This document shows positions 33,485 to 43,306 of a DNA stretch of 64,000 nucleotides, in pieces. The notes under the pieces were generated by a model, which had not been told where the DNA came from, searched no databases, and saw nothing but the letters and a program-made list of their open reading frames with translations. The stretch's first letter is position 1; every line of letters starts with the position of its first letter. The position numbers and the translations under genes were made by a program. The stretch lies in contig NZ_JBALDK010000059.1 of the NCBI RefSeq assembly GCF_036917455.1, positions 1,466 through 65,465 of the forward strand, in the 5' to 3' direction. The DNA comes from Nostoc sp. Lineage in GTDB: Bacteria; Cyanobacteriota; Cyanobacteriia; Cyanobacteriales; Nostocaceae.

Positions 33485-34690
33485 CTACTTTCTGACAAAG
33501 TTAGACGGGTCTTGATCTCGTCGATGCTTAGTGGGAATTGGGGTTGGCTGTCCGTCACCCGCAAGGGCTGCGGTTTTTTCCAGTGATTCCCTCAATCGCT
33601 TGGCGGCGTAGATAGACATGTCTCGCGGTATATTAATGCGATCGCGCAAATATCGGAGAGCAACATCAGATCCCGGTGGAGGTACACAGTCTTCATTGGT
33701 CATCATGTGTGTTAAAGCACAACGTAGGGCTTGGTCAAACAATTTATCATCTAAAGGGTTGACTCGGATAATATTGATGCGATGCTCGATAGTTCGTTGA
33801 AGAGCTTCCATGCGAGAGTTTTCGGGTTCTGGATAAGTAACATCTGGTAGCCCGAACCAGGGCCCGTTATCCACCCGCGCTTTATTGATAAGCATCTGGG
33901 TGTCGCCGTTTTCCCAACAGCCCCCCATCTGGGGCGGCAAATCATGTACGTGGGTGTGAAAGTCACTCTGAGTACCGCAGTAGGTCGGTCGGCTTTCCAT
34001 TGCTGCAAACCATGCCCTCAAGCGAGGGTTTTCCTCACGCAAAGAGTAGCCCTTGTAGTAGTAAAGGCTCGCATTCATCCGTTCGAGATATGGCGTAAAA
34101 ATGACATCAACGATGCCGAAGCTATCTAGAAAGTAAGGACTTGGGGTGCAACCCAGAGCCTCCTCCACCCTAGCCACTACTTGGATGAATTGTTCTCGGT
34201 TACGTTGTTCTTGTTGAGAGTTCTCTGCTCTATAGCACAGCCAAGCACACCAAGCTCGAAATAAAAGTCGTTCTAGTTGACGTAGAGGAAGCACTGTGCG
34301 ATCTTCCATCCCTTGGCTCAATGGCTCAAAAACCTTTGACAAAGCGATCAAAATGTCATCGCTTTCCTTAATAATCTGTCCATCTAGCTCGATCGCGGGG
34401 AGCATTCCTGATGGTACCTTACGTTTATACCAACTTTCTTTCTCCCCATAACAGAACATTGTCACTTTTTCGATGCGATAGGGGATCTGTTTTTCCTCTA
34501 GCCATAACCAAACTTTTTGACAGTAAGGACACCAGGCGTGGTTATCGCGGTACAGTGTTACCCGCACATCAGATTCGCGCTGACCAAACAAGCGCAACCT
34601 GGCTTTAGCGTTGGTGAGACCATTAACGGTATCTATTTGATAGTCCGTGAGGGTTTCTAGTTCTTGCCAGCTTAAGGGTGCGGTAGTCAT
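33485..34690 (-). CDS. Glutathione S-transferase family protein (probable start 34690)
   Basis: [26 protein letters not shown] and [11 protein letters not shown]. Confidence 0.88.
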
Positions 34691-35067
34691 AGGGTGAATT
34701 GCGTAGGCCAATACTTAGGACTTTTCTTGACTCTACAATATTTTCAATTACACCAAGGCTTAATTTCACCGATAGGTTCGCCCATTTGGAAAAGATATTG
34801 GAATTTTAGGATAGTGGCTCTATTGGGATGAACTATCTGTGTTAACGCTCAAAATACTGTGTATGATTCGGTGTCAGTCCCTAATAAAATTGATGAAGAT
34901 GGTTTAATCACCGAGACTGTAACAGATAAGTTAGCAATTCGCAGTCCTTGAGTAATTTCACCTCCTCTAAGTTGGAATGACCTAACAAAACAAGGATTTT
35001 ATATTTTAGTTTTTCTTTCCTATAAACAACTGTATTCACAAAACGATCCGATTTATCAGAGAAATTA

Positions 35068-36339
35068 ATGAACTCAAAATATAACTTTCAATACTTCCAA
35101 GGAAGCTCTCTTTCTGATTTGTTTGCTCAAGATATCACAGATGCATCTTATGGGTTTATCTTAAATTACCCTGCAACTGCGAGTTGGGCTGCTTATCCCA
35201 ACCGGAAAAAATATTTTATTCAAGATGGCAGTAGTGAAGCCACCAAAACCTCATTTGACAAGATTTGCCAAAAGGAATCTTGGAAAAATTTGGCTGTGTT
35301 AGGCGAGGGCATTCCTGGAATTGTGATTATTCCACCACCAAAGTTGCTGCTGGAATACTGGCAAGAGCATTTCGGATTTAATCACTCCAATATTGAGATG
35401 ATGGACTGCTCAACTTATCTAGACGATCTGGGCCGCAACGAACGCTTTGATAAACTCATTACTCTATTTCCCTTCGATGGTTTAAAAACCGAAAAACACG
35501 CTGTTGATTCAGACACCCATTACCGCTTACTTAGTAAAGTAACGCTAGACGAACTGGGCGTGCAATGTCCAAAATACAAAACCTACAATCTGCACCAAAT
35601 CAATCTCCAAGACATCCAGTTACCGCAATTTCCCTATTTAATCAAAACATCGCACGGACTCTCAGGAGAAGGCACTTATATCATCAAAAGTCCCAGCGAT
35701 CTAAACTACTGCCTTGAAGAAATTAGAAAATATCTTGCTATTAAATTGCTCGATACGATTATTGTCTCAGAGTTCGTCAAGAATGAGGTGCAAAATTACT
35801 GCGTACAGTTTTATATCAACAAAGCGGGGGAGATAACCCTCATCGGTACTACTGGACAACTCGTTACTCCAGAAGGCAACTATTTAGGGGGACTGATTGA
35901 CTACCGCAAAACTGACATGAGCAAGTTCTTTGAGATGATTGCCAACGTTGGTCAGTATGCTCACAAATATGGGTATTTCGGCGTGATTGGCTTTGATGTG
36001 TTGGAAAATCAAGATGGACAGCTTTTTGCAATCGATGCCAATTTCAGAGTTAATGGCTCGACTTCGTTGTGTTTGCAGCGCCATACTCTAGTGCGACTGG
36101 GAAAAGGAGTAGCTAAATATTCCGGTAGCTACCGAATGGAGGGGACATTAGAATCAATTCTCATAACCCTCAGACCAGAATTAGATCGCAAAGACTTGAT
36201 TATTCTATCGGCTTTGGAGAAAGTCAAATACGGAAAAATCTATACAGAACTTTATGCGATCGCTACTGGAGAAACTATCGAACAAATGCAGTCTATTGAG
36301 CAGAAATTACAGAATAAGGGATTACAACTAGTCTCTTAA
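35068..36339 (+). CDS. ATP-grasp domain protein of unknown function
   Basis: PYLIKTSHGLSGEGT, IVSEFV, GVIGFDV and AIDANFRVNGS. Confidence 0.8.
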   Translation: MNSKYNFQYFQGSSLSDLFAQDITDASYGFILNYPATASWAAYPNRKKYFIQDGSSEATKTSFDKICQKESWKNLAVLGEGIPGIVIIPPPKLLLEYWQEHFGFNHSNIEMMDCSTYLDDLGRNERFDKLITLFPFDGLKTEKHAVDSDTHYRLLSKVTLDELGVQCPKYKTYNLHQINLQDIQLPQFPYLIKTSHGLSGEGTYIIKSPSDLNYCLEEIRKYLAIKLLDTIIVSEFVKNEVQNYCVQFYINKAGEITLIGTTGQLVTPEGNYLGGLIDYRKTDMSKFFEMIANVGQYAHKYGYFGVIGFDVLENQDGQLFAIDANFRVNGSTSLCLQRHTLVRLGKGVAKYSGSYRMEGTLESILITLRPELDRKDLIILSALEKVKYGKIYTELYAIATGETIEQMQSIEQKLQNKGLQLVS

Positions 36340-36371
36340 GGGCTAGTACTGATGCAGGTTATAAAGAATAT

Positions 36372-37244
36372 CTACACTAGGCATTCTTGATAAACCCAAT
36401 TGTCAGGAATTCTTTCTAAAATCCCATAACCAAACACCTGATTCATTTTTAAATATTCCAGATGAACGTAACCAATATGACAGTGACAAGTTTGGTTGCT
36501 ACAAGGTTGATTAACCAAAGGTACTTCCCAGTCAGAATCATAAATATTACCAATAGGTTCTTTAATAAAATGACATCGGCGCATTGTCCCATCACCATCA
36601 ACAGAAATCGCTGATTTTCCAGCCCTACAAGAATGCCCAAAGCTAGGATAATGTTGAGTATTTAATTCATATAATGGGTCAATAGATTGGAAAAATTCTC
36701 GATTTTCTGGTGATAAATTAGGAAGTTCAGCCTTGACAGCATTAATCCACAAATAAACATGGTGTGGTAACTCCTGACGTAAAGCTGCTATTTCCGCTTG
36801 AAACTTGGGAAAACCGACAACTCCAACGCTGAATTTGACATTTTTGTTGTCTAAATTGAGGCATTTTTGTAAAAAGCGATCGCGTGACACCCATCCTGAA
36901 TGAAAAGTTGCCCAAAGTGCCAATTTATCTTTGTTACATTCATCTACCCAATCTAGCTGACAAGAGAGATTAGTTTGAATTGCGGCTTTCTTAACATTGG
37001 GCAATTGCGTTAATTTTACCAGCGCTTGCTGATACCAAGAATGGATTAGGGCTTCTCCCCAAGGAGTAAACAGAATTGAAAATTGATGTTGGGGATGTTG
37101 GGAAATCCAATTGACAAACCGTTCTAAAGATTGTTTATCGATTGCTAATTCTGCGGCTGTTTGTTGGCGTTTAGCAAAAGGGCAATATTCACACCCGTAG
37201 TTGCAACTGATTAAAGAACCGCGATAGAGAATGGTGAGGTGCAT
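36372..37244 (-). CDS. Radical SAM protein, STM4011-like
   Basis: SCNYGCEYCPF (CxxxCxxC) and a Cys-rich C-terminus (CRAG...CHF...CSNQTCHCHIG). Last gene of the module. Confidence 0.85.
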   Translation of the reverse strand: MHLTILYRGSLISCNYGCEYCPFAKRQQTAAELAIDKQSLERFVNWISQHPQHQFSILFTPWGEALIHSWYQQALVKLTQLPNVKKAAIQTNLSCQLDWVDECNKDKLALWATFHSGWVSRDRFLQKCLNLDNKNVKFSVGVVGFPKFQAEIAALRQELPHHVYLWINAVKAELPNLSPENREFFQSIDPLYELNTQHYPSFGHSCRAGKSAISVDGDGTMRRCHFIKEPIGNIYDSDWEVPLVNQPCSNQTCHCHIGYVHLEYLKMNQVFGYGILERIPDNWVYQECLV

Positions 37245-37266
37245 ATTAATAATGAGTTAAATTGCA

Positions 37267-37496
37267 TTATTCAGTAATAGAACAGTAGCGCCCGTGTATA
37301 TAGTTGTATCCGTATCCTAATTTTCCTTGCTGACCATAAATTAATTGACAGCATCGATTCTGGCTTTGACTAGAAAACTTGCCAAGCGTTGTTTAACACC
37401 TTCAATTCCACCTAAAACAACACCTTGTACTGGTGGCGGTGCTTCTTTGCCAAGTACAACATCAAATTCTCTCGGTTCATTTTGATTGTTTATCAT
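37267..37496 (-). pseudogene. Collapsed STM4015-like gene: N-terminal ~50 codons joined to the C-terminal ~15 codons
   Basis: GGAG RBS then MINNQNEPREFDVVLGKEAPPPVQGVVLGGIEGVKQRL...N* (37341-37496). A shifted frame continues YGQQG...YIHGRYCSITE* (stop 37267-37269), matching both ends of 42053..43306. Confidence 0.85.
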
Positions 37497-37577
37497 ATTT
37501 TCTCCAACGGTAGATGTAATGTAAATATCCGTATAAATGTGATTAATCGCTTCTAGACAAATCTTTTTGAAGCCTCA

Positions 37578-38921
37578 CTATTTCAACTCATAATCCTGCA
37601 TTAATTCCTGCACTTTCTCAGAAAATAACCACGTGCCAATAATATCAGAACGCTCAATGCCAAATTCAGTTAACTGCAAAATATCCTCATCTTTTATCGC
37701 CAAATTAAAAGCAAGCAGTTCTGAAAATTCTGGAAAATCAGCGTATACTTCACTATCAAATTGCTGACGATAGCTAGCACAATTCAATCCTTCATCGGAA
37801 AGCAAAGATAATAAAATATACCGCCGACGTTGTTCTTCAGCATTTAGTTGAAAACCATAGTGCGCGTAATCAAATGACTCATCTACTGTTTGAATATACG
37901 CTTGTAAAATCTTACTGATTCCCTTTGCTCCCACTGCATATTCGTTGGAGTAGTGCAAAGTATCGGTGTAGGAACGTGCGCCACAACCTAAACCAATCAT
38001 ACCGTCGGCTTGACAACAGTAAACGGGAGATGAGGAAGGAAGATTGCTACCTTGTCCTTCTTCTAAGCGTTGGAACATCCGCATGGAAACTTGCGTATAT
38101 CCTTTCGATAATAATAGCGATCGCCCTTCTCGATAACAAGCTAAACGAATATCATCCCATTCTTTATCTGTGCGTCCCAAACCTGTGAGCGATCGCACAT
38201 ACAATGGATATAAATAAATTTCTTCTGGTTGAAAACGCAAGGTAGCTTGTATTGATTGCAACCAAGTATTTACTGTTTGTCCGGGTAAACCGTAAATCAA
38301 ATCAATATTAAGCGTGGGAAATCCCATCTCTTTGATCCTTGTCAGCGTTGCTTCTACTTGGGTAGTAGATTGACGGCGCTGGGTTGCTAAAACTTCCGAA
38401 TCGATGAAGCTTTGGACACCAATACTAACACGATCGACGACGTGCGATCGCAACAGCTTTAACTTGTCCTCAGTGGCGGTTTCTGGCGAAACTTCTACAG
38501 AAATAGGAATTTCCTGTAAGTTTGCACCCATCGTATTTTCAGCAATATTGAGAATAGTTTTGAGATGCTGAATAGGTAATTGGGTAGGAGTTCCGCCACC
38601 AATAGCGAACCTAGCAAATGACGCATCACCCAACACCACTTTCATCCGTTGCGCCTGTCGGTGTAGTGTGTGGACATATTGATTCATAAAATCTTCATTG
38701 TAGCTGACTGTGGTAAACAGGTTGCAGAAACCACAACGCATTTCGCAAAACGGTATGTGTATGTAGAGAAATAGCGCTTGTCTATCTTGCTGCGCCCAAA
38801 GTTCTGGAAGATACACAGGTGGAGTTAGGGGACGATAAGCCGTTTTGTGGGGGTAAGAATAGACGTATGCTTGATAGGGAGACTGGGCGATTTTCGATTT
38901 AAGATTTTTGATTGTCAGCAT
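37578..38921 (-). CDS. HemN-like radical SAM protein, STM4012-like
   Basis: YIHIPFCEMRCGFC, GGGTPT, RVSIGVQSF, NIDLIYGLPGQ and IGLGCGA. Confidence 0.88.
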   Translation of the reverse strand: MLTIKNLKSKIAQSPYQAYVYSYPHKTAYRPLTPPVYLPELWAQQDRQALFLYIHIPFCEMRCGFCNLFTTVSYNEDFMNQYVHTLHRQAQRMKVVLGDASFARFAIGGGTPTQLPIQHLKTILNIAENTMGANLQEIPISVEVSPETATEDKLKLLRSHVVDRVSIGVQSFIDSEVLATQRRQSTTQVEATLTRIKEMGFPTLNIDLIYGLPGQTVNTWLQSIQATLRFQPEEIYLYPLYVRSLTGLGRTDKEWDDIRLACYREGRSLLLSKGYTQVSMRMFQRLEEGQGSNLPSSSPVYCCQADGMIGLGCGARSYTDTLHYSNEYAVGAKGISKILQAYIQTVDESFDYAHYGFQLNAEEQRRRYILLSLLSDEGLNCASYRQQFDSEVYADFPEFSELLAFNLAIKDEDILQLTEFGIERSDIIGTWLFSEKVQELMQDYELK

Positions 38922-41092: not shown

Positions 41093-41958
41093 TTATTCGT
41101 GGAGGGCAAAATAGCGAGAAGCACTATACCCGTAAGCTATCTCTTCTTGAGAATGAGCAATTAACAAACAATCAATAAGCGATGATTGTTTAATGTCGTG
41201 AATAAATTCTTCCGATACGGAATTGTGAGCAATATTAAGTGTATGTAGATTAATGATTGCTTGTGATTCAATAAAGCGTTCAAGCCTATGTCTGTCAAAT
41301 TTTCCATTGACAAATCAAGTACTTCAAGAGTTGCAACAATGGGAGATTCAGCCATAAAAGAAGATTGAGCGATCACATCTGCTATTGCATCACTATAATC
41401 GCTACTACACAAACCTAAATATCGTAAATTTGGGAATGATTCACTAAAAATAATTAGTTTTAAACTATCAATAGTATCATCATAGCTATGTTCAGAACGT
41501 ATACCCATCCATAAGTCAAAACACTCTAGTTTTGGTAAATCGAGTGAACAAAGGCAATAAATTGTGACATCGCTAATATTTGCTATCTCAACTGGATTGA
41601 TGATACCAGCTTGAGCATTGAGACTTTCGGCTGTCCAATCTTTTAAAGTTGTAAAAAACAACCAAGCTTCACACCATAAAAGTGCTTGCTTTCCTTTGCC
41701 TTCTGTTTCTTGCAATAGCTCAAGGGCAATTTTATAGATTTTCTGCGAGGAATCTTGCAATGCATCAATCACTAAATCTAAACCTACATTTCCATAATTT
41801 AATGCGTCTGACAGTGCAGCAAATTGCACCTCAAAAACTCCCATATTTAACCTATTTTTAACCCCTTGTATACCTCCTAAAACCACACGACTATTAAATG
41901 GTACTTCGCCATCAAGTACTGTATCAAATTCTCTGGATTGATTTAGATTATTATTCAT
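41093..41958 (-). pseudogene. Second STM4015-like LRR paralog, with an internal deletion and a frameshift near 41265
   Basis: Starts MNNNLNQSREFDTVLDG...VVLGGIQGVKNRL at 41958. Lacks the central region relative to 42053..43306. After LLN a shifted frame gives QAIINLHTLNIAHNS...SRYFALHE* (stop 41093-41095). Confidence 0.8.
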
Positions 41959-42052
41959 AGTTAAAAGTGAATTCATTAAGAGAAAGTTTTTTAACCCACG
42001 CATGGGGGTTTTGTCTGTGTAGCCGCGTCTTACAGTCACCTGATACTAAAGT

Positions 42053-43306
42053 TCACTCTGCAATAGAACAATAGCGACCGTGGATGTAACTATCCTCATC
42101 TTCTTGCTTCTGATTACTTACCAAAATACGCACATCCAATTCAGATAATTTATCAATCATCTCCTGAGATAAAAAGCTTTCGGAAACATTCAGAATATCG
42201 AGATAATTTGTCGCCGGACAATTGAGCAATTCTTCCGCACCTGCGTCACTCAGCGTCCCCATTGAAAGGTCAAGTACGCTGATAGAATTAATAATCGGAG
42301 AACCAACAATAACGCTGACGATTTCATTCGTGAATTGGCTATTACGTAATCCTAAATAAGTCAAGTTAGGAAATTTCCCTTCAAACAGAATCGGATTTAA
42401 ATCTTCAACCCAACAATCTCCGCCGTAATCTTCACTGCCAAACCATAATTCTAAATGTTCTAATGCTGGCAGATTCATATTAAAAACTTCTGCAACAGTA
42501 TCTCTACTTAAAGCCCCAGCTTCAACAATGAATGCTTTGAGGTGATTGTGTCGCACTTGGGGACTAAATTGTAAACCGTCCCCTCCACGAATTTGCAAAA
42601 TTTCAAGTTTGGGATAAGCTTGCAAAACCAGACTGATATTACTTTGTCGAATCCAAGAAATTTCACAATCATGAGAATCTATATCACCGATGAAAACAGC
42701 TTTGAGATTAGTTAAATATTTTTTAGCATCAACTAAAGCTTGGACAATGCTACTTGAATCCCTTTCGTATGCTTCCACCCATAAACCAAACACTAAAGCT
42801 TCTAATTTCTCGGCGTTGGGTTCTTGTAGTAGTCTACTAAGTTTACTCGGCAAATTATCCTCATACTCATAATATTCAGACCTAAGAGCGTAAGCATTAT
42901 TAACAGGTTCAACAATACCTATATTTGCATCGAAATCTACAATTTGCCGATTTGCAAATGAATTAACATTCATTGGATACTCATTTAATCTTTCTTCTAA
43001 ATTCCAAGGTTTATATGTTCGCAATGCTTGTATAACTTGCGCTTCTACTCTTGGCTTTAATAGTCGATAAGCAAAACGCTGCACCAACCTCGATTTATCT
43101 TGCAATCCTTGAATTAATAAATTCAACCCAGCATCACCATATTTCAAGGCTTCGCTAAGTGCAGTAACCCGCACCTGAGTAACAGGATTTGATAAATAAC
43201 GTTTAACTCCCTCAATTCCTCCTAAAACTACTCCATCCATAGGAGGCGGAGATTGTCCTCCCAACACTGCATCATAATCTCTGGGTTGATTTTGGTTGTC
43301 TGTCAT
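42053..43306 (-). CDS. STM4015-like leucine-rich-repeat protein with an N-terminal HEAT-like module
   Basis: LEALVFGLW, NLKAVFIGD, LPALEHLELWFG, FPNLTYLGLRNS and VLDLSMGTLSD repeats; C-terminus RYCSIAE. Confidence 0.85.
   Translation of the reverse strand: MTDNQNQPRDYDAVLGGQSPPPMDGVVLGGIEGVKRYLSNPVTQVRVTALSEALKYGDAGLNLLIQGLQDKSRLVQRFAYRLLKPRVEAQVIQALRTYKPWNLEERLNEYPMNVNSFANRQIVDFDANIGIVEPVNNAYALRSEYYEYEDNLPSKLSRLLQEPNAEKLEALVFGLWVEAYERDSSSIVQALVDAKKYLTNLKAVFIGDIDSHDCEISWIRQSNISLVLQAYPKLEILQIRGGDGLQFSPQVRHNHLKAFIVEAGALSRDTVAEVFNMNLPALEHLELWFGSEDYGGDCWVEDLNPILFEGKFPNLTYLGLRNSQFTNEIVSVIVGSPIINSISVLDLSMGTLSDAGAEELLNCPATNYLDILNVSESFLSQEMIDKLSELDVRILVSNQKQEDEDSYIHGRYCSIAE

Follow-up and report, generated by a model that had tools for sequence, protein, structure and literature searches.

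A 51-codon reading frame in the STM4011-STM4015 cassette of Nostoc as the probable remnant of an accessory LRR gene

The locus described here raises the question of whether the 230 nucleotides between the STM4012 and STM4011 radical SAM genes of a Nostoc genome hold a small gene in its own right or what is left of a larger one. STM4015 (NCBIfam NF038076) is the LRR component of the uncharacterised STM4011-STM4015 cassette, and the literature on STM4011-4015 and SEN3800 yielded incidental mentions only. In the window, by which we mean the whole stretch of 64,000 nucleotides that was analysed, positions 37267..37496 of the minus strand carry a Shine-Dalgarno sequence and an ORF of 51 codons, followed by ...LIYGQQGKLGYGYNYIHGRYCSITE* in the +1 frame. 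The preliminary description had listed a ribosome-binding site, a short ORF and a tail in another frame, all of which were found on this strand, and had suggested a deletion remnant of a third STM4015-like paralogue. That suggestion is upheld by a collinear alignment with the orthologue of a related genome and by a full-length gene at the same slot in relatives, and with a probability of about 0.9 we regard the remnant as a pseudogene, left by a deletion in an accessory STM4015-like LRR gene, and infer that it lacks function.

The surroundings of the remnant are those of an otherwise intact cassette on the minus strand. Upstream lies the STM4012-family (HemN-like) radical SAM gene (37578..38921; NF006067, 617 bits against a cut-off of 380), an exact look-up of whose protein gave no record, and downstream the STM4011-family radical SAM gene (36372..37244; NF038073, 412 bits against a cut-off of 200). 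The STM4011, STM4012, STM4013 and STM4014 enzymes adjoin the remnant and all score above their NCBIfam cut-offs (NF038073, NF006067, NF038075 and NF038074). The canonical STM4015 paralogue of 417 aa is also intact (42053..43306, minus strand; NF038076, 290 bits against a cut-off of 275), and a second STM4015-like paralogue, a 292-aa frame at 41161..42039 on the same strand, is degenerate and matches NF038076 with 75.8 bits only, over model positions 137-232. The latter ends in an unrelated C-terminus. The window genome has thus kept four of the four cassette enzymes and one of three LRR copies intact, and the head motif has three matches in the whole genome of 6.77 Mb, all inside this operon. 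PADLOC gave generic radical-SAM similarities only (pVip, PDC-M51A) on the cassette and no hint of a known defence system, and a promoter and terminator scan around the remnant returned consensus-level matches that did not clearly exceed those in shuffled sequences and were not used.

In the remnant itself, GGAG (37505..37502, minus strand) lies 5 nt 5' of the ATG at 37496, and the ORF at 37496..37344 encodes MINNQNEPREFDVVLGKEAPPPVQGVVLGGIEGVKQRLASFLVKARIDAVN, which contains the peptide MINNQNEPREFDVVLGK..., before the stop TAA at 37343..37341. The +1-frame tail, ...CQLIYGQQGKLGYGYNYIHGRYCSITE*, ends at 37267, and the start of STM4011 (37244) is located 22 nt further on. The 51-aa product matched no NCBIfam or Pfam family, and it did not reach the NF038076 cut-off of 275 bits. 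Alignment with the intact paralogue at 42053..43306, proposed earlier as a check, was significant but distant, with 78 of 107 nt identical in the head (E 6e-14) and 23 of 27 nt in the tail (E 1e-4). One detail of the earlier reading did not survive this comparison: YGQQG had been paired with the YGDAG of the paralogue, which is situated near the N-terminus of that protein, and instead it corresponds to the C-terminal ...LIYGQQGKEGYGYNYIDGRYCSIAE of the orthologue in a related genome, G027.

The relatives show what the slot holds when it is intact. When 60 related genomes were searched with the 51-aa sequence, and their neighbourhoods fetched and the window proteins mapped onto them, the best match was G027, where the sequence was 86% identical over all 51 residues to the N-terminal part of a frame longer than 400 codons. 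An intact STM4015-like gene of 397-428 codons is present between the STM4012 and STM4011 orthologues in G027, G031, G016, G011, G018, G004, G023, G030 and G036, and in G032 the gene is also present with one in-frame stop at codon 85. The full-length gene to be looked for at this position was accordingly found in ten genomes of the same genus, counting G032 with its stop. The slot-3 proteins, as we call the products of this position, match NF038076 with E values of 1e-46 to 3e-79 and 159-266 bits, below the curated cut-off of 275, and therefore they are divergent accessory paralogues.

Compared with the G027 allele (419 codons, 1,260 nt), the remnant aligns as two collinear pieces that overlap on a short repeat. 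The 5' piece, which covers the end of STM4012, the spacer and codons 1-51, matches at 264 of 293 nt (about 90% DNA identity), and the 3' piece, with the last codons, the spacer and the STM4011 start, at 137 of 148 nt (about 93%). Taken feature by feature on the minus strand, the inherited 5' untranslated spacer of the lost gene, 81 nt at 37497..37577 and including the GGAG, agrees with the spacer before the G027 orthologue at 71 of 81 nt, with the GGAGAAAATATG context identical. The head, in which the frame is open (37344..37496), corresponds to codons 1-51 of the ancestral STM4015-like gene, with 137 of 153 nt and 44 of 51 amino acids identical to G027. The tail at 37267..37350 corresponds to the ancestral codons 393-419 and the stop, lies in the +1 frame with respect to the head and lacks a start codon of its own; after the repeat, 72 of 77 nt are identical to G027. 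The inherited 22-nt spacer before STM4011 (37245..37266) matches at 19 of 22 nt.

The two pieces meet at an octamer, CTGTCAAT, which occurs twice in the G027 gene, at nt 146 (codons 49-51) and nt 1176 (codons 392-395), within direct repeats that match at 10 of 11 nt around the 8-nt core. The window has a single surviving copy at 37344..37351, with the upstream context 5' of it and the downstream context 3' of it. When the 1,030 nt between the two copies were removed from G027 in silico, exactly 230 nt remained, of which 209 are identical to the remnant with zero gaps. The earlier estimate that about 1 kb of the middle had gone was therefore close, the loss being exactly 1,030 nt, and of the estimate that about 50 and about 15 codons had been joined, the first part was accurate (51 codons) and the second too low, as the tail amounts to 25-27 codons. 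Since 1,030 is 3 x 343 + 1, the tail is out of frame. At the junction the ancestral ...GTC AAT GAA... has become ...GTC AAT TAA..., with the bases taken from the downstream TTA-ATT codons, and in a three-row alignment this junction-made TAA (37341..37343, minus strand) replaces the ancestral GAA (Glu52).

When the sequence between short direct repeats is lost and one repeat copy stays behind, the footprint is classically that of replication slippage or illegitimate recombination. The spontaneous deletions mapped in lacI of E. coli are reportedly the classical example, and the remnant likewise ends in an 8-nt direct repeat of which one copy is kept, in a single event with no other indel; we see no notable difference from the lacI deletions, with the mechanism in our case read from the footprint. 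It is thus likely that an ancestral STM4015-like LRR gene of about 419 codons once occupied the slot between STM4012 and STM4011, that a single deletion of 1,030 bp between the two copies of CTGTCAAT, by replication slippage or RecA-independent illegitimate recombination, left one copy behind, and that the last 25-27 codons were thereby thrown out of frame while the first 51 were closed by the TAA formed at the junction. There was plentiful opportunity for repeat-mediated deletion, as 29 identical pairs of 8-mers are found within the G027 gene. A full-length orthologue at the slot, collinear flanks across one gap and a disrupted frame, by which a pseudogene is recognised, are all present here, and relaxed constraint after the lesion is also seen, on small counts. 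We also considered a programmed frameshift joining head and tail, and independent translation of the tail. The former was rejected, as no slippery context was seen and the join is the plain outcome of a 3n+1 deletion, and the latter as well, the tail frame having no start codon.

The deletion could in principle belong to the assembly rather than to the organism, with a gene that is intact in the cell, or a minority allele, collapsed in the contig. The genome is a draft of 267 contigs, and a Logan contig boundary at 37241-37270, beside the remnant, might mark a point at which strain variation makes the graph branch. However, the junction repeat of only 8 nt is far below the k-mer sizes used by assemblers, the missing 1,030 nt have no other copy in the genome, where the three head-module matches are all accounted for, and the remnant carries substitutions of its own on both sides, as would be the case for an old lesion. 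The independent Logan assembly of run SRR28386264 also crosses the junction: its contigs match the window at 38833..37241 and 37270..33872 with 100% identity, and the first of them spans the whole remnant. We therefore find it scarcely credible that the collapse is an artefact. The exact junction sequence had no match in other genome contigs or in metagenome contigs, and no second genome with the allele was found. The two Logan contigs overlap by 30 nt at 37241-37270, a break in the de Bruijn graph right after the remnant, and this break might come from strain-level variation upstream of STM4011.

If the remnant is a pseudogene, its head should have lost the constraint under which it is held elsewhere. 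We compared the first 38 codons (114 nt) with those of six orthologues sharing this head type, in which these codons are nearly invariant (0-5 amino-acid differences, dN 0.00-0.06). The dN of the window head to each orthologue was 0.09-0.11 over the same codons, raised roughly 2- to 8-fold or more, and 17 of the 114 nt of the head depart from the consensus of the six orthologues, compared with 2-8 in the intact genes. In Tajima relative-rate tests with G027 as the sister, 12-13 changes were unique to the window and 1-3 to G027, with p values of 0.001-0.02 with four of the five outgroups and of 0.11 with the fifth. The derived replacements T2I, Q7E, A13V, G17K and R36Q bring in residues with frequencies of 0.02, 0.00, 0.11, 0.02 and 0.09, respectively, among 47 distinct head modules of relatives. 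The change to K17 required two nucleotide substitutions and replaces a Gly held in 43 of the 47 modules. Seven of the 12 changes are non-synonymous, which has a probability of 0.002-0.013 under the ancestral omega of about 0.07-0.1 and is compatible with omega = 1, and in the tail four of the five differences from G027 would be non-synonymous. The branch-specific omega is about 0.4, which is below 1, on small counts and on a branch of which a part predates the deletion. The dN/dS check that had been proposed thus went part of the way: the head has evolved faster than in any intact orthologue, which by sequence comparison is good, though not conclusive, evidence of relaxed constraint, since the counts are small and E7 and V13 are also found in heads from other organisms.

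The ORF could nevertheless have been put to use after the deletion. The preliminary description had offered a retained 51-aa interaction module, and a functional micro-protein of this kind would be a free head that binds the partner of the heads of full-length STM4015-like, WD40, GUN4 and HEAT proteins, for example as a decoy or regulator. The ORF is open, the GGAG 5 nt upstream is kept and the operon is otherwise intact, making translation plausible, and dozens of paralogues share the strongly conserved head. Against this, the ORF ends where the deletion junction happens to lie, the five rare replacements at conserved columns, G17K among them, have accumulated at an accelerated rate, and the product is unique to the window genome. 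A called protein with exactly this 51-aa sequence is listed from NCBI, UniRef and Logan, and it forms a one-member cluster at 90% identity in a set of about 15 billion proteins. When 5.8 billion clusters were searched for proteins of similar length, six other homologues were recovered (46, 49, 63, 65, 68 and 87 aa), each with the conserved head followed by a different, unrelated tail, so these short ORFs end at unrelated positions. From their sequences they are independent truncations and not a family. The 46-aa stub comes from a metagenomic cyanobacterium, in which an STM4012 gene is followed downstream by the tandem LRR array that contains the stub. The conservation of both length and sequence across lineages that marks a small protein or a RiPP precursor was not observed, the product being a singleton and its homologues of 46-87 aa having unrelated ends.

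The predicted structure of the intact window paralogue (AF2, alignment of 44 sequences, mean pLDDT 84.9) indicates what such a free head would consist of. Residues 1-30 are without secondary structure, their pLDDT lying below 50, in line with the disorder that docking motifs often display and hence in favour of a micro-protein. Helices follow at residues 31-38, 43-67, 73-83 and 89-97, then the LRR solenoid, and confidence drops again over the last seven residues. By this prediction the 51-aa stub contains the whole conserved head (1-38), yet beyond helix 31-38 and the first part of helix 43-67 nothing of the four-helix N-terminal domain remains in it, which speaks against a retained module. 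The best structural match of the model was PDB 2RA8 (Q64V53 of Bacteroides fragilis, a structural-genomics LRR protein; E 5.7e-21, 31% identity over 274 columns). The fold of 2RA8 is the one that the remnant has lost, nothing of the matched region being retained, and the 274 aligned columns fit the family core in length and not the first ~140 residues. A sequence search of the PDB with the N-terminal 134 aa returned nothing beyond marginal LRR or alpha-repeat noise.

In relatives the N-terminal domain of about 100 aa (the disordered head and HEAT-like helices) is also fused to WD40 propellers (about 400 and about 700 aa) and to a GUN4 domain (262 aa; PF05419, E 1e-36), and it occurs in a HEAT-only protein (L040 14190-20000; L045 12367-19970; L035 1866-4198). 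These WD40, GUN4 and HEAT head genes, of which the window genome has none, form an island beside the cassette, and the head-bearing genes of one genome number up to 16.

With relatives carrying a full-length gene at the slot, a short ORF that is a singleton and derived replacements at conserved positions, we consider a maintained micro-protein very unlikely. The more specific idea, that a translated stub might act as a small regulator of the cassette by offering a free disordered head (1-38) that competes for the putative partner of full-length heads, is to us a little less probable again. As part of a deletion pseudogene, the 51-codon ORF may still be translated from its inherited ribosome-binding site inside the operon, and it would then be a decaying product rather than a maintained one.

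The remaining suggestion in the preliminary description, that the 51-aa peptide is a leader-like substrate for the radical SAM and ATP-grasp enzymes, would make it a RiPP-type precursor modified by the products of its neighbours. In favour of this, the peptide gene has a radical SAM gene on either side and an ATP-grasp gene nearby. The relatives speak against it, as none of them has a conserved short ORF at the slot, a gene of about 400 codons being found there instead. The composition of the STM4015 family also argues against it. The NF038076 family search returned 2,499 representatives at E <= 0.001, typically of about 305 aa, and it supplied the tail motif, as no NF038076 members were found in the 14 named control genomes. 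Members of about 305 aa have only about 30-50 residues before the core, and the 16 that were listed start differently, without the cyanobacterial head; the NF038076 model itself starts at residue 139 of the intact window protein. What is conserved family-wide is the C-terminal tail, in which an acidic stretch (33% D/E) leads into the terminal consensus R-Y-[VCI]-x-V-[SGA]-E, and among the best 150 of the 2,499 representatives (P0130-P0279) a C-terminal Glu was found in 141. In the intact window gene this tail is encoded at 42053-42076. When the remnant was examined for the tail pattern R-[YF]-x-x-[VI]-x-E, the coding sequence of RYCSITE* proved to be present, but it is out of frame and thus outside the 51-aa product. 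The leader or substrate reading fares worse than that of a free head module, and we judge its chance of being correct to be negligible.

The family resemblance of the remnant is clear at both of its ends, its head being homologous to one end of STM4015-like genes and its tail to the other, and it sits in the cassette slot, whereas it has lost the entire LRR core and the greater part of the N-terminal helical domain. The tail invites a comparison with another group of proteins. LysW, with LysX, and ribosomal protein S6, with RimK, are C-terminal-Glu acceptors of RimK-type ATP-grasp ligases. STM4015 likewise ends in Glu after an acidic stretch, its tail is of low confidence in the AF2 model, and the ATP-grasp enzyme of the cassette, STM4014, has weak similarity to RimK and LysX. 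By this analogy, in which we claim no sequence homology, STM4015 may be a counterpart of LysW or S6, serving as an acceptor or carrier protein through its C-terminal Glu. The comparison touches the remnant only in that its tail cannot be translated.

The remnant is one case among several. In G015 (L043 10041-11292) a different deletion has cut STM4012 at about residue 317 and joined it out of frame to the last ~96 LRR codons, in G007 (L042 2076-2745) the orthologue of the first paralogue (LRR1) has lost 583 nt in an out-of-frame internal deletion, and in G032 the nonsense codon at position 85 interrupts the slot-3 gene (L040 1582-2787). With the 46-aa metagenomic stub as a further example, the decay of accessory LRR copies is recurrent, and the inactivations in these Nostoc genomes are independent. 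The remnant is an ordinary, textbook deletion pseudogene of a kind already known, and annotation pipelines, which call it a 51-aa 'hypothetical protein', should flag it as a gene fragment. It can also serve as a marker: in a Nostoc genome of 6.8 Mb the canonical STM4015 and four intact enzymes have been kept while two extra LRR copies decay, and in other Nostoc genomes accessory copies have been lost independently as well. Taken together, the decay here and the losses elsewhere make the accessory LRR copies look dispensable and the slot hypervariable, which is relevant for working out the function of the uncharacterised STM4011-4015 cassette.

The variability of the slot is also visible among its intact alleles. 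In a comparison of the loci L033, L035-L040 and L044-L046, the slot-3 LRR gene fell into at least five allelic classes that are 34-54% identical after residue 38, with flanking enzymes that are about 87-95% identical. Some alleles are mosaic: the body of the G018 protein is 82-85% identical to those of G023 and G036, and its head is 53-58% identical to theirs and 87-92% identical to the heads of other classes. From the sequences this looks like cassette exchange by recombination. In G027 (L033 6947-8299) there are two LRR genes between STM4012 and STM4011, split by a duplicated 168-nt fragment of the 3' end of STM4012, and the duplicated fragment is, as its sequence suggests, the footprint of an insertion or exchange via the conserved flank. 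In G016 (L036 8001-28000) STM4012 is split, with residues 296-447 on one strand, residues 1-288 on the other and STM4013 inverted between them, and no STM4014 was found within the 20 kb examined; judged from this gene order, the cassette in G016 is apparently rearranged. A protein of 423 aa with an ATP-grasp domain is encoded divergently at 35068-36339 (plus strand) of the window, adjoining STM4011. The protein distantly resembles the L-aspartate--L-methionine ligase LdmS, with an E value of 9e-30 and a score that falls well short of the cut-off, and its gene is kept beside the cassette in G016 and G030.
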